Notes: generated by a model not told the origin, from the letters alone. A stretch of DNA of 49,751 bases, filler included, from Catajapyx aquilonaris (GCA_000934665.2; 2 parts of 2 records of this genome joined end to end with filler, not necessarily neighbours in it), one strand, 5' to 3'. Shown: positions 1,878-39,200, numbered from the whole stretch's first letter. Numbers and translations are program-made.

Positions 1878-3645
1878 TCACATAACCATACATGAGCGCC
1901 CTGGAGACCGCTTTTTCCCCATTACAGCATCGAATAATTCGTCAGCCAACTTGACAGATGTACCCAACTCCTCGCAGTGTCTGTGGAGTGTCTTTGGGGT
2001 GGCTTCAAAGCCCAAGTGTGCACCAGCTATTGCACCTGCCATTGACCCAATGGTGTCCGTGTCTCCTCCAAGGGATATGGCGTACTGGACGCATCGCTGG
2101 AACTTATTGTCAGTCTGCAAAAAGTACAACAACAGACGTACAACCATTGTTAAAATCATAATAATGTGCAACTTGCCTTAATATTGGGGAGGCTTTCCTG
2201 AGCAGAAAGGACTGCGAATATTGCTATTGGCACTGAACCTAATGCCGTAACATCATTTCCCAAGTATTCCACTGCCAGTTTATCCACATGTCTCTCTGCA
2301 CATCTTTCGCTGGAGCTGATCTCCAGTAGTTCCTTCACTGTGTCTAGCTTCTTGGCATATGGATGAGACTTGCATGACTGCTCTGACTCCACATTCTCCA
2401 TTTTCTTCTTCAGATTGGACAGGAATTCACTTGCATTCAGGGGCTTGTTTGGGTCGGATTTCAATGCTTGATGGACAGCCAAGCACTACACAAACGAGGG
2501 GGAAAAACACTATGTATTTTAGCATCATTTGTTGAGTACATGATTTGAGTCTATTGTTGTGATAAGCGGGTAATATGGAGGGACCACTGTTTTATCCTTC
2601 AAAATATTAAGACATGCATAGCATTTCGATGCAAAACGATCTCTATTTTTGCAATAGACTCCAATATTATTCTATGGAATTGCGCATTCACATCCCACAC
2701 ACCGAATCCTCAAATTCACATTCTTTCTGAGTAACTTTGTGTTCATGAATGTTTGTTCACAAAAATTTTAAAGATAGAAAAATAAATATATTACCTGTAA
2801 AATTGCGCCATTGTACCCCAGCCTGTGAGTGTGTGTTATGAGGGTGGATGTTTTGGCTAGCTCAATCATTTTGTCCTCATTGTTTAATGCAAATAGTGCA
2901 ATAGGAGCAATTCGCATTGCACCACCATTGCCGTACGAGCCTGCTCCTCCAAATTGTAGCTTTGCAGGCCCAAATGGATCCTTCACTTTGGTTTCCTTTA
3001 GCTCATCAAACACATCCACAACATGATTACCGTAGCCTCGACGTGGGTCAGAGAAAAATTCCTTTACGAATCTGCAATGACGAGCACATGCAAATGCATA
3101 TTAGCTGATATTACAGTTCACCCATACCTTGCAATTATCTGCAATTGGTTTTAAACACTTTAAGAAGTACTTTTGCAACATCCTCACATTTTATATGACA
3201 AAGTGCACTTCCTGTCACACAATTATCGATCCACTCAATTCAGAGGCAGCAAACTAACCGTTTGGCCATATCCTTCGCATCAAAACCCCTCTTTGCCAGC
3301 AATGAACGTGCAATGGAGCGGGTCATTGCAGTGTCATCTGTGTACTCCTGCAATGGCTCTGCAAATAACAAAACATTTGAGACAACAGGTAAAAAAGAGA
3401 TGCCAGTCTGTATGCTCCGTACCTCTACTGTCAGGTCGGTTGAGCTTGTTGAAGTACTTGTTGAGCACTAAGTAGTCCACCAACTCCCACTTAAATTCGA
3501 AGAGATTTCCCAGGCAGTCTCCCATCAGGTCTCCGGCCAAGCAGCCCCTAAATTTATCAGCCAGGTACTCATCTATGTCCACTTGTGCATCATCAGAGTC
3601 TGTTGGCATCTCTTCAGATGTTGTTGGGTCACTGGACTCTGCCAT
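1878..3645 (-). CDS. ADPRHL2: ADP-ribosylhydrolase ARH3-like, copy 1 (subfamily A), ~381 aa
   Basis: Exons 3645-3423, 3358-3259, 3071-2795, 2485-2177, 2114-1878 splice to a continuous frame. Motifs KFRGCLAG..GDCLG..FE, YTDDTAMTR, GSYGNGGAMR, THTH..GYNGA.LQ and LGGDTDTIGSMAGAIAGA. Intron 4 has a GC donor. Orthology to ADPRHL2 versus the other copies is not established. Confidence 0.9.
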
Positions 3646-4959
3646 CTTCAAATGGAGTACAGACAAATACAGTTACGAGCACCAAGATTGGCAGGCGCAA
3701 GGCAAATCAGGGCAGTATTTTAGGGTCAGTGCTGTTAATCACATTCAGCCACAATAACACATCATTTCACATGAAAAGAAATGACCAATGGATTGACACA
3801 ACTGTACAACCTCACAGATGCAATGTACTGTACCAAAATGGTACAAAATATTGCACCACTGTAGTTTTGTGCATCCAGGAGTGGTAATAAACGACTAAAG
3901 CTTGCATCGTAAGAAGGAGAGGCGGAATTATATGGCATTAATTCACGTAGAACAAGTTCACTTCACCAGGGAACACAAAACAACGTGCGTATTTTGATCT
4001 TAGATTAAATTGTTGCACCAGTAACAACATACCTTCTTGGCTCGCTGGGATATTCCAGTATTTGTAAATATTATGTGGCAGCTAACAGTTCTCTGCCAGA
4101 AGCTTTGTTTACTGTGACATGTCCACTGCTGCATGTGAATGACGAATCAACATCCTGCATGTCTGTCACAATAGTATTGTTCGCTAAACACATGCCAGTA
4201 CCAGTAAGTATAATGATGATGAATGACATGTCAAAGTTGAGCATTGTCTGTTCAAGTTCCATAAAATTATATGGAGTTAATGTGCAGTGATATGAATTGA
4301 TATTTTAAAACTTACTTATATTATATTCAGCAAATACTAAATAATAATGAAGTAAATCTACATTGACATTTTAGCAAGGACAGTTTCTGAATGTCATTAA
4401 AAAAAAAGCAAATGATTGACACATGGTTGCTCAGTTAATACTATTCGGAGGACAAAGACACACAGTCATGTCGCTTAGCATATGGGCATTTTTATATACA
4501 GGCCAAAATGCCTGTAAAGTCGTTGTCCTCCTCCTCCCCCCCCCCCCTCGGGGTAAAGAATTTTTTTTAAAGAGAAATAAAAATAAAACAAGCCTGTAAA
4601 ATCTTCTGTATTTCATCATTGTTTATTTGAATGCAAAAAAATAGTGACAATAAACTTCTGACCAACAGGAACTAAATACAGGAAGTAAAACATTTACAGA
4701 CTGACATACACCGGCCAAAAGGTGTGTTTTGAATTTGGTACCAACAGTCAAAACTAGACTATTATTTTGCTAGATGTGTCCTTGGCACAGTAACTTTTGG
4801 TCTTACAGCAAAATAGATGACACTTATTTACTGAACAACAGAAAATGCTGCTAACAGTTGTCTTTGCTGTAAATATAAAGGAACAGCATAAAGACTTTCT
4901 TATCAATGAAGCAAAACAATCTTGTCTTTTACACTATAGCAAGGTTTTAAAATAAATCC

Positions 4960-6885
4960 TTACATAAGCTCACATGAGCGGCCCTTCCCCATCACGACAT
5001 GAAATAATTCGTCAGCCAACCACACAGATAAGCCCAGGTTCTCACAGTGTCTGCGGAGTGAGTTTGTGGTTGCTTCAAAGCCCAAGTGTGCACCAGCTAT
5101 TGCACCTGCCATTGACCCAATGGTGTCTGTGTCTCCTCCCAGGGATATGGCATACTGGATGCATCGCTGGAACTTATTGTCAGTCTGAAAAAATATAACA
5201 GCAGACATAAAACTGTGGTTAACGTCATAATAATGTGCAGTATACTTACCTCAATATTGGAAAGGCTTTTCTGAGCATGCAGGACTGCAAATATTGCAGT
5301 TGGCACTGAACCTAATGCTGTAATGTTATTTCCCAAGGAATCTACTGCAAGCTCATCCACATGTCTCCCATCATCCCTCTCACTGGAACTCATCTCCAGT
5401 AGTTCCTTCACTTTGTCTAGCTTCTTGGCATATGGACTTGGTCCCAAGGTCTCATCTTGAGGGAAGTTCTTCTCTGACTCTGATTCCAACTGATCAATTT
5501 TCTTCTTCAGGTAGGAGAGGAATTCAGTTGCATTCAAAGGCTCATGTGGGTTGAATTTCAATGCTTGATGGACAGCCAAGCACTGCACAAGAAAGAGGCA
5601 AAAGCATTCAAATTTTCAGTAACATTATTTTATTGAGTGCTTGAATTGACTCTAGCAAATCTCCCCATTAGTTTTTTTAAAAATGTATGTCTGTTCACAA
5701 GAGTCATATAAGGAAAGAAAAATAACACTAATTACCTGCAAAATTGCACCATTGTACCCATTCCTATGGGTGTGTGTTATGAGAGCAGATTTATGGGCAA
5801 TCTCAATTAGTTTGCCCTCATTTTTGTATGCAAATAGAGCAACAGGAGAAACTCCCATTGCACTACCGTTGCCATACGAGCCTGCTCCTCCAAACTGTGT
5901 ACTTGCAGGGCCATATGGGTCCTTCACTTTGGTTTCCTTCAGCGCCTCAAACACGTCCCCAACATGAGGGCCATAAGCTCGCATTCGATCGGAGTAAAAT
6001 TCATTTACCAACCTGCAATGATGAGCTTTCAAAGTATGTCACTATCGGTAAGTCATCAATACGAAATATTATTGCGGGAAATGAGAAACAAAATTCAGCA
6101 ACTTCTCCCTTATCCACATTTCCCAAACATCCATGTGATATAGTCATACAGAATACTGCTTTTATGGAGTCCTAGAAAACTAACCTTTCGGCCATGTCCT
6201 TTGCATCAAATCCCTTCTTTGCCACCAAGGAATGTGCAATGCAGCGGGTCATTACAGTGTCGTCTGTGTACCTCTTCAGTGACTCTGTAAATAGCAACAG
6301 GTGACGCAACAGGTGAAAATGAGATGCCTGCATGCATACTCCATACCTATGGTTTCAGACTGGTTGAGATGATAGAAGTACTCGTTGAGCACTGAGTAGT
6401 CTACCAGTTTGCACTTAACCAATTGGTTCCTAGTGTCCTAATATATATAGGACGGGCAGGAAAAAAATTATTTTTCGCAGTTATGATTATAAATCACAGA
6501 TTAATGGAGCTGATCCTCATCATCATGAAAATCTACTTTATTGAAGATACATCAAATTTCAGTGATTGCATCAGTCACAAATACAAGTTGAATGTTGGGA
6601 GAGGATGCCTTGTAACTTCTGTTATTTAAAATAATTTTACGCTGAACTATTTTTTTTCCATCTTAGTTTCTAATGCATGCCTTAAAAATATTATTAAAAT
6701 ATCATCAGTAGATCAACCTCAGGAACATGTGGGTTAAATTCAAATGGATGGCCAAGGCAGTCTCCCATCAGGGCTCCGACCAGGCAGCCCCTGAACTTGT
6801 CGGCCAGAGGGTCCATATTCACTGGTGGATCATCAAACTCCCTTGGCGTCTCTCCAAGTGTTGTGAGGTGACTGGATTCTGCCAT
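4960..6885 (-). CDS. ARH3-like copy 2 (subfamily A); exon 1 interrupted by an insertion, so either a pseudogene or rescued by splicing
   Basis: Exon 1 starts at ATG 6885, is interrupted at 6419-6737 and resumes to 6347. Then 6284-6185 (YTDDTVMTR), 6012-5736, 5582-5250 and 5184-4960 (GGDTDT), all GT-AG and in frame. Confidence 0.8.
6419..6733. mobile_element. TTAA-flanked 315-bp insertion (piggyBac-like non-autonomous element)
   Basis: TTAA at 6415-6418 and 6734-6737, with imperfect CC..GTTCCT inverted termini. Removing it restores PFEFKCKLVDY, colinear with copy 1 LFEFKWELVDY. Confidence 0.8.
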
Positions 6886-8289
6886 CTTCAAATGGAGTCC
6901 CAGGCAAAAAAAAAAAAAAATAGAGTCACCAGCACCATGGTTGACAAGCGCAAAAAAAAAATCAGGCGGTATTTTAAGCGCAGTACTATTGATCACATTG
7001 GGCCACAATAACAAACATCCCTTCAGATGACAAGAATACCCAAGTGATTGGTCTGTATGTACAGTACATTCACACAGACGCAATGGACCAAAATAATTAT
7101 ATTGAATTGTCGCACAGTGAGAACACTACTTATTGGCTCACTATGAGTGCCATTTCAGTACATGTATATGCCAAAAGGTCTCTGCAGTCTCTGCTCTAGA
7201 GCTGCATTAATATTATGTACCCGACACTACACACGGGTTTGGTGCTATAAATATATTAATAAATAACATTAATTATTTTCAAAATCTACATATGTAAGAC
7301 GAAGGTTCTTTGTTTTTTTGTTTGCAATGGCCACTGGATTTTGTTGGTGATTATCATGGAAACAGGCCGTGCGAAGAATGGGCTCCGCTTCTAGTATGCA
7401 TATTATAATACTATCTTGGTATTTGCGGAAAGTTTGCAACCCTACGGACTAAATAATATGGCAACAGGTAGAAACATCACATTCCTTGCTCTTGAGACTT
7501 TAAAATCTTTACCTCAGCAATGTAAGCATACTGTACCTCACACTAATGAATATATGGTGCCACTGTCCGCTGTTTTCAACTTCAAACCAGTACTATTGCA
7601 AATGCAAAAAACCGGTAGGAGTAGAGAAGAGAGGCACCGTCGCAGAAGGTGTGGGTGGAGGCTGTGTCTCAAACGCAGTAGGGAGGATGTATTGATTATT
7701 TGGGAGGGCACATAAAAAGCTGTAGAAGGATATCATACATCAACCTCCCCTGCAACACAATCGTGACTGTTAAATAAACATCCTGAACATCTGTCAGAAA
7801 ATTCAGAGCTATTGTTCACTAAACACACGCTAAGGTTGTATGGAGGAATTTCTCATGCAGAAAGAGTTTTAATGGGCACTCTCCCTGTTCCCATTGGTTT
7901 CTCAGGACTCGCACCTTCCCATCCGCAATCAAATTCCATGACCATTGGCCAGGCAATGGAGCAAGTCAGGTTTTGGAAAGAAAATAGCCTAAAAGGTCCC
8001 AGTGGACTTATCATGTATACATTATGTTCCACTGGAACTAAAAAATCTTTACACTCAACAGTAACCACACCTCACATTTACGAATATGGTGCCGGTGTAA
8101 GCTGTTATCTACTTCAAACCCTCACTATTGAAAATGAAAAAAATAAACAGCACATTCTGCTGCTTCCCAAGATTGCTACGTAGAAGAATATTTGGTTATA
8201 GAGCCATAGCAGTCTAGGCAGTGTACTGGCTCAAGAATATCTGATGGCTTGGCATTAACTGAATAATTAATAATAAAGAAACAGTTATG

Positions 8290-10397
8290 TTAATGTCCCT
8301 TCTTTCGAGCCACATGAAAGAGCTTGTCAGCCAAGGAAGACACGTCATCCAACTCCTCACAGTGGCGCAAAAACACAGCAGGGACTTCTTTCTCGCCAAA
8401 GCATGCGCCAGCAATAGACCCTGCCATTGCTGCAATTGTGTCGGTGTCACCTCCCAGCTCAATGGCATATCGAATGGCTCTCACCGCAGATGTCTCACCC
8501 TGAGGGTTTAAAAAAAGCAATATTACTGATTGTCCAAAACTTGTAATCAGAATGGTCACCTTGATCCCTGAGTCTGGAAGCTGTGCTCGTAGGAAGCAGT
8601 AGATGGCAGTCACCACAGATCGAAGGGCAGTTTCCTCATTTCCAAGGGATGAAATCACATGTGCTACATCAACAGAATTCCCTTTTTGCAGCAAAGATTG
8701 AGCTTTACGCAGCTGGGACACAAATGGCATTGCCCGGATTCTGGGAATTAATATTGATCACATCACAAACACTTTGCAATAATGTCAAAAAATACAAATA
8801 ATGAATCTCATAAGTTGTCAGTTCTGTTCAAAGGCACCAAATCAGGGTGTTGAACTTACTCATTGTCAGGACGTTCCACTGTCATCATGGCACTTATTAG
8901 GTCGGAAATAAATGTGTGAGGGTTAATTGGTTCCGTAGGGTTGGTGTTCAGAGCTTGGACAACAGCCAATGCCTGTGAAGTATTTAAAATGTTAAATTGT
9001 ACTTTTAAGATCTGCAAATCAGATGGATTCATCTGCTTGATACCTGATGGCACATATGCATTGTTACTCAAACTAAAATTGTCTAAATGAAAGTGAGATC
9101 TTATGTTATCATATGATGCACATTTAAAATGTCACTGTTTGTTAATCATCACATCCTTCTCCACTTTGAGTGTAGGAGTACAAAATGACACCAAACAATG
9201 TAAATTCTTCAATCATAAAGGTATTTCTGGTACTGTCCAATGAGGACCAGCTGTTACCTGCAGTATAGCGCCATTAATTCCATCCCGATGGGCATGAGTG
9301 ATGCGTGCACTGTCTGTCACTAGAGATTTCATCTCCTTAACATCTTCATGGTACAGGAGTGCCACAGGTGCTACTCTCATGGCACCACCATTGCCAAAGG
9401 AGCCACAGCCATTGAACTGCTCATGTGCCGGTTTGAATGGCTCGCTGCTGTCACTCCGTAGCTGGTGAAACACGGTCCTGACGTGAGCCCCGTACAGCCT
9501 ATTTGGTTGAGGTCGGAAGTAATCTTCAGCAAAGTTGGCTGCAACCTCTTCAGGAATCAGGGCACCGTTGTTTTTAACCAGAGACCAACCCAGTGTTCGG
9601 GTCATTGCAGTATCATCCGAGTAATGAAGAATGGTCACTAACATGCGAAAGTAAAAAGTTAAACATAGTGTGTTCAATTTACAATTGAGACAATGTGATC
9701 AAAAATAAATGTGGTCAGCATACAAGTGAAAGCCATTAAGTCAATTTTGTGTTATTTATATCACAATGTTACGTTTTTTCTGCTCTATCACACGCTGAAG
9801 TCAGTTTAGTCCTAAAGATGCATAATGAGTCAACAAGCCAAGATTTGGGTAGGAGGGATGGGTCTTGACTTGTATGTAAGCAAGTGCAAGGTCAAATCTT
9901 TGGTTTCGATTAAGTTTATATCAAAACTGTGTTTTTTTATTATTATTTATTTTTAACTTGGTCACTTTCACTTGTGTGCCGACAATATAATTATGATGTA
10001 TGGTAACAAGCAGCACCTATTAAATTGAATTTTATTATTTTTTAAAATTTCTTTTACCCCATGCTGGGCCATCAAGGTCCTTATTAAATTGAATTAAAAG
10101 TAACTAAATTAAATTATTAAACCTGCAGCTCAACACGATATCACATGATACATAAATACTTCCTCAGAAACATCTTGTACAGTTTATCTTCAAGGTTCAC
10201 CTTGAATCTTGAACACTGTAGTATAACAGGTGCATTATACCTTCTTGTTCTGGGTCCCCATAGGTAGCAAAAAAGCTGTCAATTTTTTCTTGAGCAGCAG
10301 CTGGACGCAACTCAAATGGGAATCCTAAACAATCCCCCAACAAAACTCCCATCAGACATCCTCGGAATTTTGAATGCAGCGTCTCTGCATCTGCCAT
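8290..10397 (-). CDS. ARH3-like copy 3 (subfamily B), ~346 aa
   Basis: Exons 10397-10241, 9637-9258, 8972-8860, 8740-8560, 8499-8290, GT-AG, continuous frame. Motifs KFRGCLMG..GDCLG.PFE, YSDDTAMTR, GSFGNGGAMR, THAH and GGDTDT. Confidence 0.9.
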
Positions 10398-10460
10398 GAT
10401 TTGCTTTGGTTCACCACTGCACTGGCACAACACCTTACAGGCTTACGCAATATTATTACT

Positions 10461-10560
10461 TGGACTTCCTTCTAGAGGGCCAGACCAGTTGGTTGGGTGG
10501 TGTGACTCAAGGTTGGTGTGACGACCCTGGAATAAATAAAAGCTTACAAACAAAAAAAAA
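10461..10560 (+). mobile_element. Short retroposed 3' fragment (AATAAA + A tail)
   Basis: ~100 bp ending AATAAATAAAAGCTTACAAACAAAAAAAAA, flanked by near-direct repeats CAATATTATTACT / CAATATTACTACT. Absent from the duplicated segment at ~12205-12220. Confidence 0.5.
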
Positions 10561-10963
10561 CAATATTACTACTTTGTAGTAACACGTAGTAATCAGTACC
10601 ACACCACCATCTTGTCAGGATATAACTTATCACTAAGGACGTTAGGCTACTTTTTAAAAAGAGGAAATTGTTTTGATAAGATAGGCTGTGAGGCTGTGAG
10701 GGTGCAGAGGTCTACTCCAATCATTGTTAATGGGGGTAATATATTGCTTCCATTTGCACTAGATGACTAGAAGAAATGTCCTATTCACTGAGGGCAAGGT
10801 TTCATTTTTTTAAACAGGCCATTCATACACTGTTTAAACACAGGATACAGGGACACAAAGGTTTACTACATGTCACATTTGGTTGTACAATACAAGAATT
10901 TATTGCATGTCTACTGTGCCATGACAGCTTTAGTAGGGTAACAGTTCTCACCAAAATCTGTTA

Positions 10964-12167
10964 TTATTTTTTCAAGGTGTTCCTTTGGGATATTTGAAAC
11001 AGCTCATCAGCCAGGCGACTTACGTCATCCAACTCTTCACAGTGTCTCAAAAGAACAGGAGGGACGCTTTTCTCTCCAAAGCAAGCTAGCCATGGTTCCA
11101 ATAGTGTCCGTGTCACCTCCCAGCTCAATGGCGCATCGGATTGCTCTCACCACCATGGTCTCACCCTGATTTTTTAAAAAATTAACGTTTAATATTTGAA
11201 TAATAATAATATATAATAATAATAATAACTGGGGTAGTGCTTTCACCCCCAACTGGGGGTATATCACACGTTCCTTTATTTTTGTTATTATTATTTTTAC
11301 AGTAGCTGGTGCAGGGACAAGGTAAGGATAGGAAGGGGGGACACTGGTGCATGTGCAATCTCTCATGTTGGGGGTCGTGTGCAGTCCCCCAGGGGGTCCG
11401 TTCGCCATAGATGGCCCCCCTAGATGCGGGTCAGAAACCCCCGACTGACCCGCATCTCCTCCAGGACAGGGAAAGGAGGGAAGCGGCTGTGGCCTATATT
11501 ACGGTACGATCCCGGAAATTATTCCTGGAGTGACCTTGGGAAACCACAGAAAACCAAGGTCAGGATCGCCGGCCTCCGGGATTCGAACCCAGGACCTCCC
11601 GATTAGCAGTCGGACACCATATCCACTACACCACTACTGCTTCGGTGTTTAATATTTGAATATTTATCACATGAGTAGAGGTTGAACCCACCTTGATCCC
11701 AGAGTCTAGTAAGGTTGCCCTCAGAAAGCAGTAGATGGCCGTGACAACCGATGTCGGAGCAGTTTCTCCATTTCCTAAAGTGTCGACCACTTGTTCTGCA
11801 TCTACACATTTGGCTTGTTGCAGCAGTTTGTCAGCTTCTTGCAGCAGTGACACGTACAAGGTTTTTGTTTGCCTGTTGAAGATTCAATGTCTCCATGTTA
11901 CCATGAAATTAGTACTGCCAAGTAAAATCACCGTAACAATAGGTGGAAATATAGACTGTCTAATAACGGTTTACACTCTACCTTGTAGCAGGCTGCTCAA
12001 GTTCCGTCATGGCGTCTATAGGGGTCCCCATAGGCAGCGAAAAAACTGTCAATTTTTTCTCGTGCAGTACATGGACTCAACTCAAATGGGAATCCTAAAC
12101 AATCTCCCAACAAGACGCCCAACATACATCCTCGGAATTTTGAATGCATCGCCCCAGATTCTGCCAT
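10964..12167 (-). pseudogene. Chimeric ARH3-like pseudogene, copy 4
   Basis: A copy-3-like exon 1 (MAESGAMHSKFRGC..GDP) is fused out of frame at ~12020 to the end of a copy-5-like exon 3. The SDDT/GNGG exon is absent, the last exon has a frameshifting deletion after TIGTMA, and the last intron holds a SINE. Confidence 0.85.
11203..11646 (-). mobile_element. tRNA-derived SINE
   Basis: The minus strand begins with an A box (TGGTGTAGTGG) and B box (GGTTCGAATCC) and ends in a (TTA)n tail. 16-bp TSD GTTTAATATTTGAATA at 11187-11202 and 11647-11662. Second copy at 26139-26568. Confidence 0.85.
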
Positions 12168-13642
12168 GATTTGCTTTGACTCATGACTGGCACAATGCAT
12201 TACACAGTAATTATTACTTTGCAGGAAGTCAGTAACAAACCACATGAGGAAGTAACTAATCACCAAGGATGTCAGGCTACCTAAAAGAAAGGAAATGTTT
12301 TGATAAGGTACTGTGTGAAATTACGTTTTTTGAATTTCCACACCTTCCCTGCACATGACTTTGTGATGTAGTAACTATACAATTGCAGTATAGCAGAACA
12401 GGTGACCAGTGCATCAAACAGCATGCAAATAAATTATACTTGCAGACAACAGTGGAACATCTTTGGTTGATCAGAAGCAACTAGAAGAGTGACAATGTGA
12501 GATTTCGCACTATTGGTCCAGTTTGGCACCATATTTGACCAGAAAAGTCGAGCTACTTTCAAACGAGGCTGCAGAGGGTGTACAGTACTGGAACCATTGT
12601 TAAAATAATTGCTTCGATGCACACTAGATGAAATTCCCTGTTCAGTGAGGACAAGGATACCTTTTAAAGGCGTCATTTAAGCAATTATGTTTTAACACAA
12701 CATGCAGGATAGCACAAATTTATTGCACATAATACTTGCTAGTAGTGTACAAGAATACTGCATTGCATGTGTGCCTACTTTTTGCATGTGCCATACAGGC
12801 AATAATGGTGCTCCATAACAGAAAAAAAACAGTGCATGATATGGTGCAGAAAAGCCCACTCGTATTGGAGTGTCAGACAGTGTAGCTCACTGAAATCATT
12901 TCTATTGCACAGGGCAGTGTTGACAACAAATCTGACAATGGCATTACTCATGAGTACATGCATGTGTGGATAGCGTCATATGTTTACAAAACAACATCTG
13001 GTACTCTTATCACAACTTGCAGAAAATTAAGTAACATTGCAGGGACTTACAAGAGCACTTGTGCTGAAAATATGACATAATTGGTTGCAGGAGATGCTCC
13101 GTCTAACTAACTTGGAGGATAATAAAATAGCACATCAGATGTAATGGTTTTTATAATAATACTATGTAACATAGGCAGCTCATGTTACATTTTTATCAAG
13201 CACACTGCATTTGATTATTAAAAATCAGTTACATCAGCTTTTGCAATTTTTCTCAGCTGTAAATGTCCCTTACCAGTAAACGCTAACAGCTTGCCACCAG
13301 AGGAGTCCTGACAACATCAGTAAATATCCCCTACGCAAGGAGTAAATATGGTGACCGAATTACAGCAAGGAAAATTGTCAAGCTCCTCTTCATTCATTTC
13401 TGTACCTTTAATTTTTGAAATGGTGGTCTTAGATCTAATAAATCAACAATTAGGCCATTCTCATCTTTGTGATCAAATTGTGTTCAAATCACGTGTTGAT
13501 CGTAATTCGTTGTTGAATCAACAATTAAGCACGATAAAAGACACGAATGTTACAGGTTACAATCTTCAGATTCTCATGCCTTATGTATGGTCTGATTAAT
13601 GCTTAGCTCAAGCAGGGTAACAGTTCTCACCAAAAGCTGTCA

Positions 13643-14279
13643 CTATTTTTTTAAAGCCTTCCTTTGGGATATTTGAAACAGCTCATCAGCCAGGCGACTT
13701 ACGTCATCCAACTCTTCACAGTGTCGCAAAAGAACAGCGGGGACACTTTTCTCCCCACAGAAAGCTCCAGCAATGGCTCCTGCCATGGTTCCAATAGTGT
13801 CCGTGTCACCTCCCAGCTCAATGGCGCATCGGATTGCTCTCACCACCGTGGTCTCACCCTGAAGTCATTTTTAAAAAAATAACGAGGCTTATTAGAAAAT
13901 TAAGCTTAAATATCTGAATAATTATCACACAAGTAGATCTTGAACCCACTTTGATTCCAGAATCTTGTAAGGTTGCCCTCAGAAAGCAATAGATGGCCGT
14001 GACAACCGATGTCGGAGCAGTTTCTCCATTTCCTAAAGTGTCGACCACTTGTTCTGCATCCACAGATTTGCCTTGTTGCAAGAATTTGTCAGCTTCTTGC
14101 AGCAGCGACACATACAAGGGTCTTGTTTTCCTGTTAAAGATTTTTGTTAACCTGTTGAAGATTCAATGTGTCTAGGTTACTAAGAAATGTATTACTCCCA
14201 AGTGCAACCTCCCTGATAATAATATAGGTGGAAATGTAGCTCTAATATCAAGCTTTACAAAGGCTAGATGATCACAATA

Positions 14280-14348
<69 letters not shown>

Positions 14349-15320
14349 GTGATGTCCACATGAACAGTGATATCAAGAGGTGCAGGGTAAGAAGTTAATT
14401 ACACTCTGCTGATAGCAGGTTGCTCAAGTTTCATCATGGCATCTATTAAACCAGCAAGGAATTCTGAGGTGTTGATTGTTACATCAGAATTAGTGTGTAG
14501 AGCTTGCATAATGGCCAGTGCCTGTGGGTGAAACACATCATATAGAAATGGGCCGTGAAATTAATTGCACACTGCGGTTTGTAATGTAGAAGCAAGCTCT
14601 TCACTTTACTGTACTGAAGCGCCTGATTGTACCTGCAATGTCGCTCCATTTATTCCATCACGATGTGCATGAGTGATACGTGTGCAGTCTCGGACATTGG
14701 CTTTCAACTGATCTACATTCTCATGGTACAGGAGTGCCACAGGTGCTACTCTCATGGCACCTCCATTGCCAAAGGAACCACTTCCATTGAACTGCATCTG
14801 GGCAGGCTTAAATGGATCGCTGGAATCTGCCTTCAATCTGCTAAACACAGCTCCAACCGCAGCACCATAAAGTCTCTCAGGTTGAGGACGGAAGAAATCC
14901 TTAGCAAAATTGACTGCTACATCTCTTGGTATCAGGACACCATCGTTTTTCACTAATGACCATCCCAGTGTTCGAGTCATCGCAGTGTCATCCGAATAAT
15001 GAAGAAGGCTAACTGTTTAATATGAAAACAAATGTAAAATTACAACACTACCTTGCTTAAAATGTGATTTGGCTATGATTCTAGCCAAGTGACATGGTAT
15101 TTGACTTACTGTATGGTAATATTACATTTGATTTACCTGGTGCATTACGCAGTCATGTTGATAACCTACCTTCTTGTTGCGGATCGCCATATTTAGAGAA
15201 AAAATTATCAATCTTCCTTTGATGAGCAGCAGGGTGCAGCTCAAACGGGTAGCCCAGACAATCGCCCAGCAAAGCACCCAGGAGGCACCCTCTGAATTTG
15301 TCGTGAAGACACTCGCTCAT
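13643..15320 (-). CDS. ARH3-like copy 5 (subfamily B), ~348 aa
   Basis: Exons 15320-15170, 15012-14633, 14521-14403, 14130-13950, 13858-13643, continuous frame. YSDDT, GSFGNGGAMR, THAH and GGDTDT are intact. Confidence 0.9.
14279..14346. repeat. (ATT)n microsatellite
   Basis: Uninterrupted ATT run in intron 3 of copy 5. Confidence 0.95.
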
Positions 15321-15764
15321 GGTGTGTCGTTCAACTTGATCAGCAAACCAAAATCTCCTGTTCCTCTTTACGCTGCTACGTGCCACTGGATCAGCTTCAG
15401 GCCAGACGTGCACCTAAAAGCAAAAGTCTATGTAGAAAATATAAACACACAACCCGGATGGGGTGCAATTACATGTTGTACATGGCTGACCTCGTTACTG
15501 ACTGACACATCCCAGATGTTGCAGTTGCATTGTGGCTATTTATGAAATAACACAGAAAATCACCGGCTCCCACCAAAGGGTTTAGGGCTGGTTTTAGACT
15601 AGTTTTTGGGAGACTAATCTGACAATAAAGTCGTGTGCGCCGCCATGTTTGAAAAAACAAGGTTGCCAGATGAAGAAATAAGACCGATGACGTCATTTAA
15701 AAAAAATTCAAACTGTAATGCGGGAGATATTTTACAATCATTTTTTCTACATTAAGCAGACAGT

Positions 15765-18038
15765 TCATTTCTTTTTGGCGCTGGCTGCTGGCTTCTTCCC
15801 TTCTGCTATCCTGAACAGTTCGTCGGCCAAATGAACGACGTCGTCAGTTTTCTCACAGTGACGCAGAAGATTCGAAGGTACACTTGATTCGCCCAAATAT
15901 GCTCCAGCAATTGTCCCTGCCATGCTTCCGATGGTGTCTGTCTGTCCTCCTAGCTCCATGGCACATCTGATGGCTCTCACCACTGTTGTCTCACCCTGTG
16001 CCCATATAGATAAAAGACGAAAATGTTATTATCGTACTAAACCCACAGTAGAATGGAGACCTACTTTGATGCCCGAGTCTGTCAAAGTTGCTCTAAGGAA
16101 GCAGTAGATGGACGTGACGACAGACTTCGGAGGTGTGTCTCCATTTCCCAAAGTTTCGACTACCTGCTTTGCATCCAGTGACTTGCCTTGTTGCAAGAGT
16201 TTGTCAGCTTTTTGCAGCAGCGTCACGTACAGAGTTGGCTCATCAGATCTGGTGGACATTCAAATATAAGATCACCAGTATGAATCATTACATATTGCAT
16301 TTTGCAGCATTTGGTGAGGCAAATTGGAAACACTTTTGTAATAATTAGTGTACTTTCGATTGCCAGAAAACAGTTTGTGTAATACATGTTCAACATGACT
16401 TCACCTTAAAAGCACCTACAAACTGATTAGTTAGTAACTCTACAGAACCGTGTTTCGCTATTAAGATGTTAAGTGCTCAGTTTGCAAGGACAGGTACTAC
16501 ACAACGTCAGATGTGGAACGAAAAGGGAGGATGCCATTACTCTCTGGTTGACGGTGGGCGTTCCACTTTGATCATGTCGTCCATTAAGCCGGAAATAAAT
16601 GCTCCGGCGTCGATCGTCCCGTTTGGGTCGGCGTGTAGTGCTTTTACGACAGCCAGTGCCTGCGCACAAAAAGAAACCTCTTACATTAAGTTGTCCACTC
16701 ATTTCATCCTCAACGTTGCCACAAACAAACGACAATACTTGTTTGTTTGTCCAGATTTGGCGGCTGGCTTTCTAGAGCTAACCCGTTGCCAAATTTTAGC
16801 AACATTCTAATACATGATGTTTCTCTCCATCGGATGTTTGTCCGACCCGTACCGCGCTGTATTTACCACTTAATACTATTTTTCGCGCATAGATGGCGCA
16901 CCATTCCCCTGCACACTCCTGCCACTCTCAAGCCATGCGTGTGATAGGGGTACTATCAGGTCGGACAAACATCCGACGGAGAGAATAAGCGGATTGCTGG
17001 ACCTGCAGTATTGCTCCTTTGATGGCGTCTGGATGTGCGTGAGTGATTCTTGCTGAGTCTCTGACCGCTCTCTTCATGGCTCCAGCATCCAAATGATGGA
17101 TGAGCGCCAGAGGCGAGATTCTGGTGGCGGCACCGTTTCCCAAAGAGCCTGTCCCATCCAGATGATCTTGTGCCGGCTTGAAAGGGTCGCCGGATCTGTC
17201 CGAAAGCAATTTGCTGAACACGTCTCCAGCAGTAGCCTCGTACATTCTGTCGTGCTGATGGGGTCGATAAAAATCGTCGGCCAAATCGACCGACACTTCT
17301 CTGACCACCAGAGAACCATCGTTCTGCACCAGGGACCAACCCAGGGTCCGGGTCATTGCCGTGTCATCCGAGTAGTGCAGTCCCGACACTTTTTTATTAT
17401 TGGAAAGGCAGAAAATGCGAAGGGTTATAACCAGCACAGTTTGTACGGTTTGAAATTACACTCATCATGCCATTGTTGCCACTGGTAATAAATCAGTTAG
17501 AACAGTGTCATATGTAAAGCGGAAATATGCAGGGTTATAACTAGCTTTACAGTATGAAATTACAGTCACGCCGGACACCACCGATCGTTATGAAGAGTAT
17601 GGAATGAGCTCAGGTTATTACTGCTTCTGCAGCGTTTATACTAATAATAATAATTAATACTGTAATTTGGAGAGATCTGCTTGGGATGAAATACACACAA
17701 ACAAAATCGTAGAGTGAAACTTGCTAGATTAACACATCACATATCTTATCGGTCTTATCACCACAGATATTTCCTGAAAGCGACTGAACTGTGACGTTTC
17801 CTCGCAGACATTGCAGGTATGTAGTTCCTCATTAAATAAATTTAAAAAATATATATATTCTCGAATGAGAGCTGTAAATACCTTCTTTAGTGTTGGGGTT
17901 GGCGTAGGTATTGAAGAATCGATCAATCGTTTCTTGAGGAGCAGCAGGTTGCGTCTCAAATGGAAACCCAAGGCAATCCCCCAGCAAACCACCCAAGAGG
18001 CATCCTCGGAATTTGGCGTGCAGTAATTCCAGCTCCAT
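15765..18038 (-). CDS. ARH3-like copy 6 (subfamily B, divergent active site), ~358 aa
   Basis: Exons 18038-17882, 17388-17003, 16659-16541, 16248-16065, 15995-15765, continuous frame. YSDDT is retained, but the motifs read GSLGNGAATR and GGQTDT. The exon 2 acceptor (AAAAAAG) is weak. Confidence 0.85.
16821..16985. mobile_element. Small inverted-repeat element (MITE-like) in copy-6 intron 2
   Basis: TTCTCTCCATCGGATGTTTGTCCGACC (16821-16847) is inverted at 16959-16985 with one mismatch. Confidence 0.65.
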
Positions 18039-19088
18039 TTCGAGTCGTGTATAGATTCAAAGCAGAGAGACACACAGCAAGCACCTCAGCTTATTCTTTT
18101 TCTCTTGCACCGTCGGAGCGTCTATAATTCACGTCTGCACAGAGACAATGAAGAGTGATATCGACGGAGCTTGTTGGCACAGCATCTGAGCTACTTATCC
18201 TCATTCCCTACTGAACCAATCAGTTTCCAGAGAGATATTGTGTGAGTCACGGTTTTAGGAATATCAGTGAGAGTATGATTGCACCAAATGCTTTTCATGC
18301 TGTTACTCGGGAGATTTTGAAGATAATATCTGCAGGATAGTGGTTATATATACATAATGGCACCAAATCAATTTGAACAATTCAGGTTTAAATATATTTA
18401 CAAGAAACGTAAAGTCCAGACGACGCCATGAGCACCAAGTGTATAAAAGCATTACTATTGTATATAACCACTCTTACGTATTAATTTGTGTCCAATATAT
18501 TAGTACAGTAAAAAGCCGCTCATGCACGCCTCGCAGTCATTTTAAATAAAATATGGGAGCTGAAATTAATTATGCTGCATGAAGTGACATGTCACTGCAA
18601 TGCGCTCTTCTACAGTATGCATGACAGCGTTGGTGTTGTCTTTGACGTGTATGCAGATTTGCAACCCCAAAAAATGCATACCACGCCTACACGAAACAGT
18701 TTATATCCTGCGTACTGGTAATAGCAAATTAATTAGGGCCTGATTATGTGCACTTACAAAATTATATGAAATGCAGCAAGTAAATTCCCAAACAAAATTA
18801 TCTGCTCATACTAAACCATCACAAATTGTCTGACATTATAAAAGCCATTAGGGGTTATACGACAAACATCTCATATTTTATTATAACATTCCGTGAGGCC
18901 TTTATATAATGACGAAGTGCAGTTGGTGGACAAATAAGTGCTGATAGCAATATATTTGAGGCCATGTTGCTGGGTCCCGTATTATGCATTATATGCTATA
19001 CAGTGAGTAATAATAGATGGTGATGATGTCGGGCAGTTTGTTGTTCCAGGAGCGCTGTAATAATCCCATCGTCTGGCGCCTGTTGTGC

Positions 19089-21091
19089 TCATAGGAGCGG
19101 ATCAAAGGCGGTCAGGGACCTGCAAATGCCTGCGTCCAGACGGCACCCTGTTAGGAATTCGTCCAGCGTCACTACCCCGTCTCGGTTCAGGTCCAGCTTC
19201 TGTAATTACACGCATAATTTTGTTTTTGGCAAGGTCGCATCGAAATGAGCATTAAACGGGGTATATAAAAGTACCTGACCTGAAAAAGCACTTCGACTCG
19301 TTCCCTGAGATCCGAGTCCGGCAATGGTGCGACACATCGTCCGAGTAAAGAGTGGACAGCGGCCACTACCATACCCAGCTCGTCTCTGGTCACCTTCCCA
19401 TCTCCGTCCAGGTCATACAGTGTGAACACCCATCGAAGACGTTCCTCTGGAGAACCTCGAGCCAGAACGGACAGGCCCAGGACAAACTCCTCGAAGCTCA
19501 ACAGGCCCGTTTGGGCTTGAGAAAACGTGTTGAAGACGTACCGGGAGTACGGACTGGCACTAGCTAAACAGGTCATACACCAATTTATATAGCAGTACAC
19601 TCCTCAAACAATGATTTATTAAACGGAATACTAGCCTCCGCTTGGGAAGAACCGTCCGTAGATGTCCCTAAATGCGTCCTCTTTGACCACTCCTGTTGGA
19701 CACTCGGCCTTGAAGCTTCTGTAGATGCGCTTCAGCTCAGATTCGGAGAATCGGGTCTGTCGGGTCAAGGATCGGAGGCTGTCGGGTCTGTACCGAGGCT
19801 CTTCTTCCTCCAGCTCCGAATCTGTGGAAGAAACCACCGAATAATCTCGTTTCAGTTTCCAAACCATTAGTGATTAATGCATTTCGGATTATCACTGCAG
19901 GGGGCGTAATAATAAGGATGTGACAAGGACACTGTTTTTGTATTCATAAAGGCCAGGAAGGGTGTAAATGAGAATATTCGATTTTCACTTGTGCAGCACC
20001 GATATTAGAAGGGGTGGGAGGATGCAAATGTGCAAAGGGTTCTGTATATGAACAGGTCTCAGCATTAATGACCCATACACATTACATATTGGCTTCAAAA
20101 TATGAAAATAAATGACAGACTCCTGTTCCAATTGCGCTAATTGCCGGTGTAACTTGATAAAGACGGACTTTAAAATGGCAAACGTCAGAAACATGCACTG
20201 CGTTTCATTCAAACCGGAAACCGATTGAAGTGCTGACAGAACTATAAGGGCTGAAGCAATTTGGTTCCATTCGGAGTTAATGTAAATCCCGTGCAACTAA
20301 CTGCTGTCCCATATAACCTAACACTTGAACCAAAATTGAGCTACACTAGGTTTTGGACAGCTCTTCAAATACTTCTGGCAGACGCGACACGGCATTGCAC
20401 TAATGACACTAAATTGATTAACAAACACTGGGGGAACCGCTCTTTACTAAAAATGCAATTCACTACTAAAAATATTTCGATGAGTGAAAATTCTATGCAA
20501 ACAAAGCTATAGCACTACAATCATTTTCTGCTGCGTATGTTGCGAGACTTAAACAGTGAATAAATCACTAAATCACTGAAAGAACTGCAGGGGGTCGAAT
20601 CTTAAATTTCTTTTGTCCAGGAGCAAAGTTTGGACTCCAGACTTTCTTCTGGAGTACAAAGTCTTGAAGTGCTTAATTTTTTAATTACTGGGTTTAATGC
20701 AGGACCAACTGGAGTGCAAACTTTTGCACTCCAAGGCTCAGTTTGGGAGTGCAGATGACAATTTCGGGAATGCAAAATTGCGAATATTTCGACCCCCCCT
20801 GGAACTGCTTTTTTTTATCAAAAATCGCCTAAGTCCATTAATTTCACAGCAATTGAGCAATATAATTCAGACGAGTGACGCGCACTGAATGTAATGACCT
20901 CAATGTCTCTCTCTCTTACCACTCCAGGCTTTGACTCCGCTCCAGGCCTGCCTTGCAAAACTCCTTATCTTCCTGCACAGCGATTGGTCCCTGCTGCTGC
21001 TGTCCACCTCTTTGTCCCTGTCCCTGTCCCTATTCCTGTCCCTCTGAGCCTCTCTGTCCGACCCAGAATCAGTGCTCATCACCCCGTACAT
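19089..21091 (-). CDS. KCNIP: Kv channel-interacting protein (KChIP)-like neuronal calcium sensor, ~250 aa
   Basis: Exons 21091(or 21079)-20920, 19821-19632/19636, 19559/19563-19280, 19199-19089. Motifs RYRPDSL..L...TRFSESELKRIYRSFKAECPTG, EF-hands DLDGDGKVTRDE and DLNRDGVVTLDE. The first exon is less certain. Confidence 0.88.
20588..20801. mobile_element. MITE-like element in KChIP intron 1
   Basis: Termini CAGGGGGTCGAA / TTCGACCCCCCCTG with internal GGAGT(G/A)CAAA repeats. No clean TSD. Confidence 0.5.
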
Positions 21092-36200: not shown

Positions 36201-39200
36201 ATTCATTAAAGCCGATTATCCTTTAAAATATGGTGATTTTGGTTCTGCCACAAGTTAATGTGGTGAGACAATTTGTCAGATAGGCTTTAGCCAAACCCGG
36301 AGCAAGGGAACTGTACAAAAATCGAACGTGACTGTTACAGCGGCTATAGGTTATTAAATCAGGCAATCAGCGTAAAATCAGCCCTGGGGTATTTGATTTA
36401 GGCTAATGTCCAACCAGCTGTAAACTAGGATCCGCACTAGGGGAAAATTGCTGGTCGAAAATACTGTTATTTCTAATGTGGGAATTGCCACGATAGGATG
36501 ATGATTGCAATGTGTCCCTAATTAGGGAAATTACACTGGTTATGACGAACCATAACACCAAGATATTCGCGTCACACCAAATTTCTATTTCAAAATTTGG
36601 GAGTATCAATATTATTTTTGGTACCTACACAGTTGTAGGCTATATGAATGTCAGTTTGCATTATATGAAAATGCTATTTAGTTCCGTTTTGTAATACATG
36701 TATATATACAGGGTGTATTTGAACTCAGTGCCCCGACGTATATGACTGCCTTCCTAGCCGCCAGATGATCGATTTAAGTATAGGAGTCATTATGTCTGGT
36801 CGCCGCATTACTGAGATAATTGGCCGCAAACATGTAGTATACAAAATATCCTGTCGGTTAGGCCACCCATCGAACCCTCCCCCAGTCAGAAGGCTCTGGA
36901 AGGTCTGGGGGCCGGACTTTGTTGCCCACAGGTGGTAAGGCCTCTTTGGCTAGTTACACCAGAAAATTCTATTTAAAAGTCAGGAGGAGCGATTAGGCAA
37001 AAATCGCTAAAGAGTGTATCTCCGTAATGAGGCTGCCCAGACATAATGACTCCTATACTTAAATCGATCCTCTGGTGGCTAGGAAGGCAGTCATATACGT
37101 CGGGGCACTGAGTTCAGATACACCCTGTATTGTAGATTGTAGTACACAAGAGAGTAATACTAGTGAGTGACTTTCTTAACTTTAACTTCGTGCAAATATT
37201 GTCAAAGACATTGTGGCAAATACTTGATTACAAAAAGCGGTACAAGGAAAATTTAACAGCAGGTCTGCACGTCACATGTGAAAAATTGTCCCCAGTTATG
37301 TCAACCTGATTTATGCAATCCCCACGTTGGAGTTCACGAGAAGGCAAACAACTCTCTAGAAGAGAGAATAAATATTAGGTCTTGACATGACGAAAATTTG
37401 ACTCAGTTTTCAGTTTCACATCTTGCCAATGGGCAGGGAAAACTGAACTTGAAATGGGGGTACAGTAGGTAGTATCTGCATGGACTGTAGGTTATCAAAG
37501 GAGACCCCAAAATAAAATTCAGTGTCATACGTCGCAGAAAATGTACGGGCATACGGAAAATTCCCAAGTGGTAGCTATGATATTTTTCATTGTCACTCTT
37601 CATTGCGGTGACAGTCACTCCTTGTGGATGCTACTTTAAATTTATTTTGGCTCTAAATTGGAAAAAGGAAGAAGAGAAAAAGAGTTATTCCAACAGAAAC
37701 GAAAAGGCAAGACGGTGCCTACTGCAATAATACATACCGTCTAACGGGGTGAACTTGGTCCGAAATTTACGTTTTACGAAGATATAAGTATGAAGATATT
37801 AACCCCCCCCCCCCCGGCCACGTCCATGGTTCCGCTAGGAAGTTTTAAATGTGTTTTTAAGGAACGGCATAATCTGTAATAATATTAACCCCACTGGAAA
37901 GGTCCTCTCCTAAATATTATTGACAAGACACTTGTTTCGCAATTTCTTGATTTGCCAAATAAAGTTTGCACACCATGAAAATTTGGTGGTTTAATGGGGT
38001 GGCCTTTAACTTACATTTATTTCCTTGCTCAGCTATGTCGGCACAGATGAATTTATTTGGTGTACAACATGCTAAGCGCTGCTGTAATGACATGGAGTGA
38101 TTGAAAGTATGATTTCCATAACACATGTTACCTTAAATATTCGTTAATGACATTTTTGGAATTGAGGCCAAGTTCACCCTGCCAGCCAACGTCACCCAAT
38201 TTGACGGTACGTGAAGTCTTGTGCTGCACTCGTAGTTAGTGTGTATACCTAATATCAAAAGGCTATTATAGTAGTTCAAATGCTAAATTCCTGGCAAATA
38301 ATCGGAAAGGTTCCCAAGATTACTCGGAAAACATTGAAATCAGAATCATCTGATAACATTTCCGGCTAGGTTTTCCCCCAAAAGTCGAGAACCTTCCACA
38401 CGGGTGGAAATGAGACTGGCTAGAATATTGGGTTTTTAGAATTTTAAAAGGTAAATTTGAATATTTTAATGGAATAAATTATGTGAGTAATAAAGAGGTA
38501 CGTCTAGACTACACGGCCTAAATAAGGGATAATGATAATATTGTTGAAAAATAAATTTTTAGAAATGTGAAGAGTCAGAATTTTCTCGTTAGAAAATTCT
38601 TTTCTGCGTTTGAGTGCGTTTGAGAGTGAGTTTCATTGGAAAAAATATATGTGGAGTAGATAATTACGTACTTGGTATATTTCCTAGAAAGCATTAACCC
38701 AGTGGTTTCCAACCTTTTACCAACTGCGACCCCCTAAACATGTTTCCATAAATGTGCGACCCCCCCTTCCTCCCCTCCCCCGGCCCCTCCTACAACTGCC
38801 CCCTTTCCAGAAAACATACACTCTGTAATGCGGCAGAAATGGTTCAATAGTATTAGCCTAGAAATTGCACACAAAAAAAAGTTTAACCAAGGCCCCACCG
38901 GTTTGAAACAGGGTTGGTAAAAACCAGGGTTTTTCTTAAAAAAAACCAACCCACACGGGTTTTATTGTGTTTTATTCAGGGTTGTGAACCGAACCGAACC
39001 CGGAACTCGTGAACCCGATAACATTGAACCAGCTCCGGAGCAGTAGAGTCGGGTTCGGAGCGAGCGTCGCGTCAGAACGGGATACAGGTTCAAGCCGGTT
39101 CAGGAGCCAAGGTCGGAGCGGGTTCGGGGTTCGGTTCAAGCCAACGGGTTCAGGAGCGGGTTCGGAGAGGTTCAAATCTTGGTTAGGTACAACATACCAA

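Follow-up and report, generated by a model that had tools for sequence, protein, structure and literature searches.

A TTAA-flanked insertion in exon 1 of an ARH3-like gene of Catajapyx aquilonaris: probably a recent truncation, less probably a newborn intron

An array of ARH3-like genes

We analyzed a window of 49,751 nucleotides (nt) from Catajapyx aquilonaris (GCA_000934665.2; two parts of two records joined end to end with filler, which is counted in the length). The DNA of the window is eukaryotic, its introns being short and of the GT-AG type. Six genes that belong to the ADP-ribosylglycohydrolase family (Pfam PF03747) lie in tandem on its minus strand, and the first exon of one of them, copy 2, is split by a 315-base-pair (bp) insertion between two copies of TTAA. 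We propose that this is probably a recent insertion of a TTAA-specific transposon that truncated one redundant ARH3-like paralogue, and we weigh this against the idea, put forward in an earlier model-made reading of the same DNA (the sequence-only reading), that the insertion has become a new intron. The array has the following members.

3645-1878, minus strand: copy 1, PF03747 array member
6885-4960, minus strand: copy 2, PF03747 array member that carries the insertion
about 10400-8299, minus strand: copy 3, PF03747 array member
about 12152-11037, minus strand: copy 4, PF03747 array member
about 15314-13670, minus strand: copy 5, PF03747 array member
about 18030-15798, minus strand: copy 6, PF03747 array member

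The array (1878-18100) comprises two subfamilies: copies 1 and 2 are ~81% identical in coding DNA, and copies 3-6 are far more distant. A distant homologue from a protein collection (P0001, 362 amino acids (aa)) matches mouse ARH3 (2qty) with E = 1.5e-81 as well as human and coelacanth ARH3, and the family is therefore ARH3-like. Taken exon by exon, copy 2 exceeds the PF03747 cut-off of 26.2 bits in exon 3 (58.0 bits), exon 5 (54.1 bits) and exon 2 (30.2 bits) and stays below it in exons 1 and 4 (17.5 and 20.5 bits). The gene keeps GHPFE, YTDDT and GGDTDT, i.e. the Glu41 equivalent and the Asp-rich metal-binding motifs; the Glu of GHPFE aligns with human ARH3 Glu41 in an alignment to solved ARH3 structures via P0001. 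With the PF03747 signature, Glu41 equivalent and TDDT and GGDTDT motifs of ARH3 (ADPRS/ADPRHL2), a serine-ADP-ribose and poly(ADP-ribose) hydrolase, copy 2 is by its sequence a predicted ARH3-type ADP-ribosylglycohydrolase gene. Unlike ARH3, it is one of six diverged tandem paralogues and carries R160G, G119A and F108L at conserved columns.

An insertion between two TTAA copies

The interrupted exon, its counterpart in copy 1 and the rest of copy 2 have the following features (here and below, a slash within a splice site marks the exon-intron border).

6415..6418: target-site duplication TTAA, toward the 3' side of the gene; copy 1 holds a single TTAA
6419..6733: inserted element, 315 bp, with ends CCAATTGGTTCCT... 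and ...AGGAACATGTGGG
6734..6737: target-site duplication TTAA, toward the 5' side of the gene
3491..3494, minus strand: empty site of the paralogous copy 1, with one TTAA within GAATTTAAGTGG
6738..6885, minus strand: exon 1, 5' part, from ATG 6885-6883 through GDCLGHPFE with the Glu41 equivalent
6347..6414, minus strand: exon 1, 3' part, KCKLVDY...SETI, with the real donor TAG/GTATGG (GT at 6346)
6694..6696, minus strand: premature TAA stop, reached after 63 codons if exon 1 is continued into the element
6284-6185, 6012-5736, 5582-5250 and 5184-4960 (including the stop), minus strand: copy 2 exons 2-5, open, with introns 2-4 GT-AG

The blastn comparison of copy 2 with copy 1 gives two matches (6174-6418 with 3248-3494, and 6734-7050 with 3491-3795) that break exactly at the element and overlap on copy 1 only at the single TTAA 3491-3494. 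The difference is a true gain of 319 bp, namely the element and one extra TTAA. The element borders were taken from the edges of these matches; a MAFFT alignment of both exon 1 regions misplaced the 3' half. Copy 1 is uninterrupted at the matching place (...LFEFKWELVDY). By itself TTAA is common in the window, with 277 sites or one per 180 bp, but the exact break of the matches at the element goes beyond a chance occurrence. The sequence-only reading had described a 315-bp TTAA-duplicated insertion that splits exon 1 of copy 2, and both the sequence itself and the empty site in copy 1 confirm it.

Read without splicing, copy 2 runs from ATG 6885-6883 through GDCLGHPFEF into the element and ends at TAA 6696-6694 after 63 codons, at the place where the earlier reading had put a stop (6694). 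Its description of the downstream exons as intact also holds: exons 2-5 remain open and have canonical splice sites. Translation from a start farther downstream, in frame and past the element, was considered and rejected, as the downstream frame opens only at 6437 and the empty-site protein has no Met before residue 84, i.e. past the Glu motif.

The single TTAA in copy 1 is also what a precise excision would leave, and piggyBac excision restores TTAA. The element could then have inserted before the duplication that gave rise to copies 1 and 2 and have been lost precisely from copy 1, in which case it would be old and tolerated, i.e. spliced. This history needs two events against one. Copies 3-6 and all homologues that align over the segment are also without an insertion there, an unspliced element of that age should have been followed by decay of the gene, and the donor is of poor quality. 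We consider such an old insertion extremely unlikely.

Nature of the element

The duplication of TTAA together with CC(C)..(G)GG terminal inverted repeats is a hallmark of piggyBac-type elements; Kolobok elements likewise duplicate TTAA. The termini of the insert are CCA... and ...GGG (CC..GG) beside the TTAA copies, and its terminal bases are complementary at 10 of 17 positions. Among the 1435 pairs of TTAA sites that lie 100-1000 bp apart in the window, 12 reach this complementarity and 3 have CC..GG ends; only the insert and the stretch 41287-42089 combine both. The element is short, AT-rich and without an open reading frame (ORF) of note, and it contains a subterminal inverted repeat of A/T runs (6459-6473 against 6645-6659, 87% complementary). 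The TTAA duplication and the CC..GG ends suggest that it is a short non-autonomous TTAA-specific DNA transposon, and one that is piggyBac-like. The short, AT-rich, non-coding sequence, the duplication, the CC/GG termini and the subterminal inverted A/T runs all resemble non-autonomous piggyBac elements of the miniature inverted-repeat transposable element (MITE) kind, from which it differs in its poor terminal inverted repeats (10/17) and in one end that is CCA and not CCC.

A search for other copies of the element, which the sequence-only reading had suggested as a check, found none in the 49.7-kb window (blastn with word size 7; the best other match is 17 nt long, E = 0.16). No Pfam match to a transposase was detected in the 15 ORFs scanned of the 51 ORFs of at least 95 aa in the window. 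Rfam gave 0 matches and ARAGORN 0 tRNAs over the whole window, and by these tests the element is therefore not a short interspersed nuclear element (SINE) derived from a tRNA.

The stretch 41287-42089 is a TTAA-flanked foldback element with perfect 24-nt termini (including TTAA, and beginning CCCC) and 328-nt arms that are 93% complementary. It is likely to be a non-autonomous element of the piggyBac type, and TTAA-flanked elements of this kind therefore exist in the C. aquilonaris genome. A further inverted repeat of 84 nt (36716-37120, 96%, arms 237 nt apart) is probably another short DNA transposon.

A candidate splice pair inside the element

On the coding strand the element contains a GT and an AG that could together act as splice sites.

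6712..6720 (GT 6717-6716), minus strand: candidate cryptic donor GAG/GTTGAT, phase 0, 16 nt inside the element, weak
6438..6467 (AG 6439-6438), minus strand: candidate acceptor ...TATATATTAG/GAC, a TAG with a pyrimidine-rich tract (6467-6441), 19 nt inside the element

The sequence-only reading had named this phase-0 donor and this acceptor after a pyrimidine tract, and their coordinates hold. The predicted removal of 6717..6438 takes out 280 nt of the 319 added bases and leaves 39 nt in the mRNA. The spliced reading, PFEF-NPHVPEDTRNQLV-KCKLVDY, is in frame and stop-free and gives 397 aa, compared with 384 aa for the empty-site reading. As had been claimed, it adds 13 residues (NPHVPE and DTRNQLV) just after the Glu41 equivalent, the insert beginning two positions past the Glu. 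The acceptor tract belongs to the subterminal repeat of the element. Joining the donor at 6717 to the acceptor of exon 2 was rejected, as phase 0 does not match phase 1.

From this pair the earlier reading inferred an intron gained through a transposon. Here the insertion would be a newborn spliceosomal intron, spliced with the acceptor that the element brings and with the cryptic donor at 6717, and selection would keep a functional 397-aa enzyme; we hold this to be distinctly unlikely. The pair has the right formal properties, being GT-AG, phase 0, in frame and stop-free, and the predicted downstream exon piece of 91 nt (6437-6347) is bounded by the candidate acceptor and a real donor. The donor speaks against it. 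We scored donors by the stability of the duplex with the 5' end of U1 small nuclear RNA (snRNA) and by matches to the 9-nt consensus. With -4.2 kcal/mol and 5/9 consensus matches, the candidate takes 22nd place among the 95 GTs of the gene. The corresponding values are -6.1, -6.7, -8.1 and -12.6 kcal/mol for the four real donors of copy 2 (8th, 5th, 3rd and 1st of the 95), -5.4 to -8.1 kcal/mol for the four of copy 1, and -5.7 to -8.0 kcal/mol for three that were inferred in copy 3. None of these 11 real or inferred donors (-5.4 to -12.6) is as weak as the candidate, and 17 unused GTs in the copy 2 gene equal or beat it. The candidate lacks the purine at +3, the A at +4 and the G at +5 together; among the donors of copies 1 and 2, all eight miss at most one of these, and one inferred copy 3 donor misses two. 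The sequence-only reading had itself called the donor weak, and these values bear this out.

An in-frame pair is easily found in such an insert. There are 20 GT..AG pairs that restore an open frame across the element, of which 4 add residues (+2, +5, +10 and +13) and 16 delete 6-54 residues; the pair 6717/6438 is the best of them. Near-exact alternatives join 6726 or 6717 to an AG formed by TTAA and a following G (+2 or +5 aa) and have poorer sites. We placed mock inserts at the same site, namely 500 dinucleotide shuffles of the element and 500 random 315-bp pieces of the window. An in-frame pair that adds 0-20 aa occurred in 277/500 shuffles and in 410/500 window pieces. As in-frame pairs are this frequent in mock inserts, the frame is no evidence for splicing.

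The abundance of such pairs fits a leaky null allele, in which some transcripts are spliced at 6717/6438 or at other cryptic pairs and the product is inactive or irrelevant and not under selection. Besides the 20 stop-free pairs, the good acceptor would allow this, and the removal of Tc1-type elements from mutant mRNAs is documented in sections of PMC12779559. The other pairs have even poorer sites or delete the catalytic motif. We regard partial rescue of this kind as rather unlikely, although it is less so than a newborn intron.

The Glu41 flap in homologues

The added residues would fall in a functionally sensitive part of the protein. Sections of PMC8319183 describe E41A ARH3 as catalytically dead and the Glu41 flap (Glu41-Tyr75) as switching between closed and open states, which admits the substrate and positions the Glu. 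We aligned 53 homologues, of which 49 align over the segment past the Glu and 4 are gapped at the Glu column; Glu is present at the Glu41 column in 45 of the 53. Among the 49, the length just past the Glu varies by 0-4 residues and lies at most about 3 above that of copy 2. The long natural insertions (up to about 20 residues) lie at the opposite end of the flap, immediately ahead of the TDDT motif. In the sequences aligned, a 13-residue insert at the post-Glu position thus appears to be without natural precedent among the 49 homologues; this speaks against an enzyme left unaffected but not against an altered one. A functional product of a newborn intron would need to carry these 13 residues two positions past the catalytic Glu, where homologues vary so little, in a flap that must open and close and around a residue whose replacement by Ala abolishes activity (sections of PMC8319183).

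Protein collections gave no copy 2 product. In a collection of 5.8 billion proteins, the exon 1 query at 'longer' lengths yielded 1 match among 9 candidates, a distant ARH3; at 'near' lengths it yielded 2 matches, both exon-1 pieces of this same distant ARH3; and the exon 4 query at 'longer' lengths yielded 0/737 candidates. None of the copy 2 proteins (spliced, unspliced or empty-site) was found by the exon 1 and exon 4 queries of this collection. Exon 3 had 654 matches in a representative library, the best at 60% identity, and no close relative among them. That a protein carrying the splice junction was not found in the collections searched counts against a newborn intron.

RNA folding and other routes of removal

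Transposon alleles whose element is removed from the mRNA are known from maize Ds/dSpm. Sections of PMC12779559 report a further route, termed SOS splicing, in which DNA transposons are excised from mRNA independently of the spliceosome in C. elegans and human cells; Tc1 and similar elements are removed from mutant mRNAs in this way. Excision is triggered by paired inverted terminal repeats (54 nt in Tc1), is followed by ligation by RTCB and is imprecise, so that only part of the products is in frame (PMC12779559, same sections).

The minus-strand RNA of 6405-6747 folds at -74.3 kcal/mol, against a shuffle mean of -59.4 (z = -2.93; 1/100 shuffles as stable), and its ends are closed by three short stems of about 7-9 bp (the duplication with its flank, GUUCCUG with UAGGAAC, and an A-run with a U-run). 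The stability of this fold and its closed ends raise the possibility that the inverted ends of the element pair in the mRNA and lead to SOS excision and RTCB ligation, with a mixture of in-frame and out-of-frame messages, a mechanism reported for C. elegans as well as for cells of human origin (PMC12779559, as above). The stems are short and the terminal complementarity is 10/17, whereas the trigger tested in the sections of PMC12779559 cited here consisted of 54-nt repeats. A hairpin test on plus-strand DNA was not unusual (z = -1.35). SOS splicing of copy 2 is conceivable and weakly founded, and we judge it very unlikely.

That introns can be gained from transposons is well established according to sections of PMC11282704, which favours a newborn intron in general terms. 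In the introners treated there, one splice site lies at the end of the element and the other is made in the duplication, removal is exact and copies are many. Like the introners of Micromonas, Aureococcus, dinoflagellates and Fritillaria, the copy 2 element is a short DNA transposon with a target-site duplication and inverted ends that lies in a coding exon and offers a GT and an AG. Unlike them, its two sites lie internally (16 and 19 nt inside the element) and neither is made by the duplication, 39 nt are retained, the donor is weak and one copy is known. With internal sites, 39 nt left behind and a single known copy, the element therefore does not have the design of an introner. By analogy, the insertion is closer to classic transposon alleles in which cryptic splicing brings a partial rescue. 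Like the Tc1 and Ds/dSpm alleles, it has a DNA transposon within an exon, and if this were removed imprecisely from the RNA, the frame could be restored with a few added bases left behind. It differs from those alleles, which have RNA evidence and long paired terminal repeats (54 nt in Tc1), in that its predicted pairing is short.

Age of the insertion and constraint on copy 2

Between copies 1 and 2 the rate of nonsynonymous substitution (dN) is 0.16-0.18, that of synonymous substitution (dS) 0.39-0.45, and dN/dS 0.37-0.44, with identities of 76-91% in exons and 72-82% in introns. With P0001 taken as the outgroup, private amino-acid changes number 27 in copy 2 and 17 in copy 1, a difference that is not significant (chi-square 2.27). 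Of the 57 columns with a conservation of at least 85% across the 53 homologues, copy 1 departs from none and copy 2 from 3 (F108L, G119A and R160G). These comparisons hint at relaxed constraint in copy 2.

We estimated how long a neutral copy 2 would survive without a new stop, a loss of the start or a loss of a splice dinucleotide, counting substitutions alone. The chance that the gene is still intact if it has been neutral since the insertion falls from 0.51 at K = 0.01 through 0.13 at K = 0.03 to 0.03 at K = 0.05 substitutions per site, and is lower still with insertions and deletions (assumed at one tenth of the substitution rate). Intactness is thus expected of, and fits, a knockout whose age is below about 0.03-0.05 substitutions per site, or roughly between one tenth and one fifth of the branch leading to copy 2. 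As intact exons are expected for any young knockout, they are no argument for function and do not separate the hypotheses; for a newborn intron in particular, they are equally expected of a young null allele.

Other features of the array

Copy 4 (11037-12169, minus strand) is a decayed pseudogene in which only parts of exons 1, 4 and 5 are left, exons 2 and 3 are gone, and exon 5 has a frameshift directly after GGDTDTIGTMA; members of the array therefore do die. Copy 6 has GGQTDT in exon 5 (about 15950-15930, minus strand) where GGDTDT is found elsewhere, and GNGAATR in place of GNGGAMR, and by these residues it may be catalytically altered.

Intron 2 (phase 2) is present in copies 1 and 2 (3258-3072 and 6184-6013, respectively). 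Copies 3, 5 and 6 lack it, their exons 2 and 3 being continuous as a single open frame (9213-9698, 14606-15016 and 16928-17455), and intron content therefore already differs within the family. In copy 2 this intron has AGGTT at both flanks. Its border with exon 3 (5985-6141) is 68% identical to 746-877, a stretch downstream of copy 1; this could be what is left of another gene copy, or a repeat. Intron 4 of copy 1 has a GC donor (AAG/GCAAGT, 2176-2175, minus strand), for which the copy 2 equivalent is a GT (GAG/GTAAGT at 5249). The array is adjoined by an exon of an EF-hand calcium-binding protein gene (19190-19603, minus strand; Pfam EF-hand_1, E = 1.2e-8).

Discussion

We propose that a short non-autonomous TTAA-targeting DNA transposon inserted into exon 1 of copy 2 after copies 1 and 2 had split. 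A read-through mRNA would stop after the 63 codons, upstream of four introns, and a message with a premature stop upstream of introns is subject to nonsense-mediated decay. The usual outcome would be a truncated protein that lacks nearly the whole fold; low-level cryptic splicing from 6717 to 6438, not selected for, may occur. The rest of copy 2 would look intact because the event is young, and its loss would be tolerated, since the array has spare copies. A recent knockout was the fallback of the sequence-only reading, and we find it the better one.

Several observations weigh against a truncation. Apart from the element, the 1,152 nt of copy 2 coding sequence contain no disabling change, i.e. 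the rest of the gene is intact, as a newborn intron would also have it. Three or more departures at the conserved columns occur in 26 of the 53 homologues as well, and in this respect copy 2 is not unusual. When acceptors are scored by the pyrimidines in the 20 bases before NAG and by a T at -3, the candidate (14/20, with T at -3) equals the real acceptors of the gene, and its level is reached by only 3 of the 127 AGs, the other two being real acceptors. In the folded RNA, the duplication and the terminal repeats pair and so draw the candidate donor and acceptor close to each other, which a newborn intron could exploit. Finally, a pair with both sites of at least the observed quality was rare among the mock inserts (1/500 shuffles and 6/500 window pieces, with thresholds set post hoc), and the quality of the pair is in this sense somewhat unusual. 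The rarity is due to the acceptor alone: with the acceptor bar lowered to 12 pyrimidines, a qualifying pair occurs in 16/500 shuffles and 61/500 window pieces.

Scoring of both sites, a check that the sequence-only reading had suggested, therefore gives a divided result, with an acceptor as good as the real ones and a donor below 11 of 11. The same holds for its inference of intron gain. The insertion, the GT-AG pair, the frame and the 13 added residues all stand; that the element has become an intron does not follow from them, given this donor and the frequency of in-frame pairs by chance. If the element were nevertheless an intron at birth, in a gene of animal type, it would supply its own acceptor and a weak donor from its terminal repeat, its paired ends would hold the two sites, and the Glu41 flap would become 13 residues longer, with altered gating of the substrate. 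We give this full scenario little credence, and a recent, truncating insertion remains the reading that we consider probable.

If copy 2 has only been knocked out, the insertion would be part of the ordinary birth-and-death turnover of a tandem family, and it would mark the activity of a TTAA-specific element in this genome. If, on the other hand, the element is spliced, the locus would hold a datable single-copy intron gain by a DNA transposon, whose consequence for the protein would be testable because the insertion lies at the hinge of the flap that gates ARH3 catalysis.

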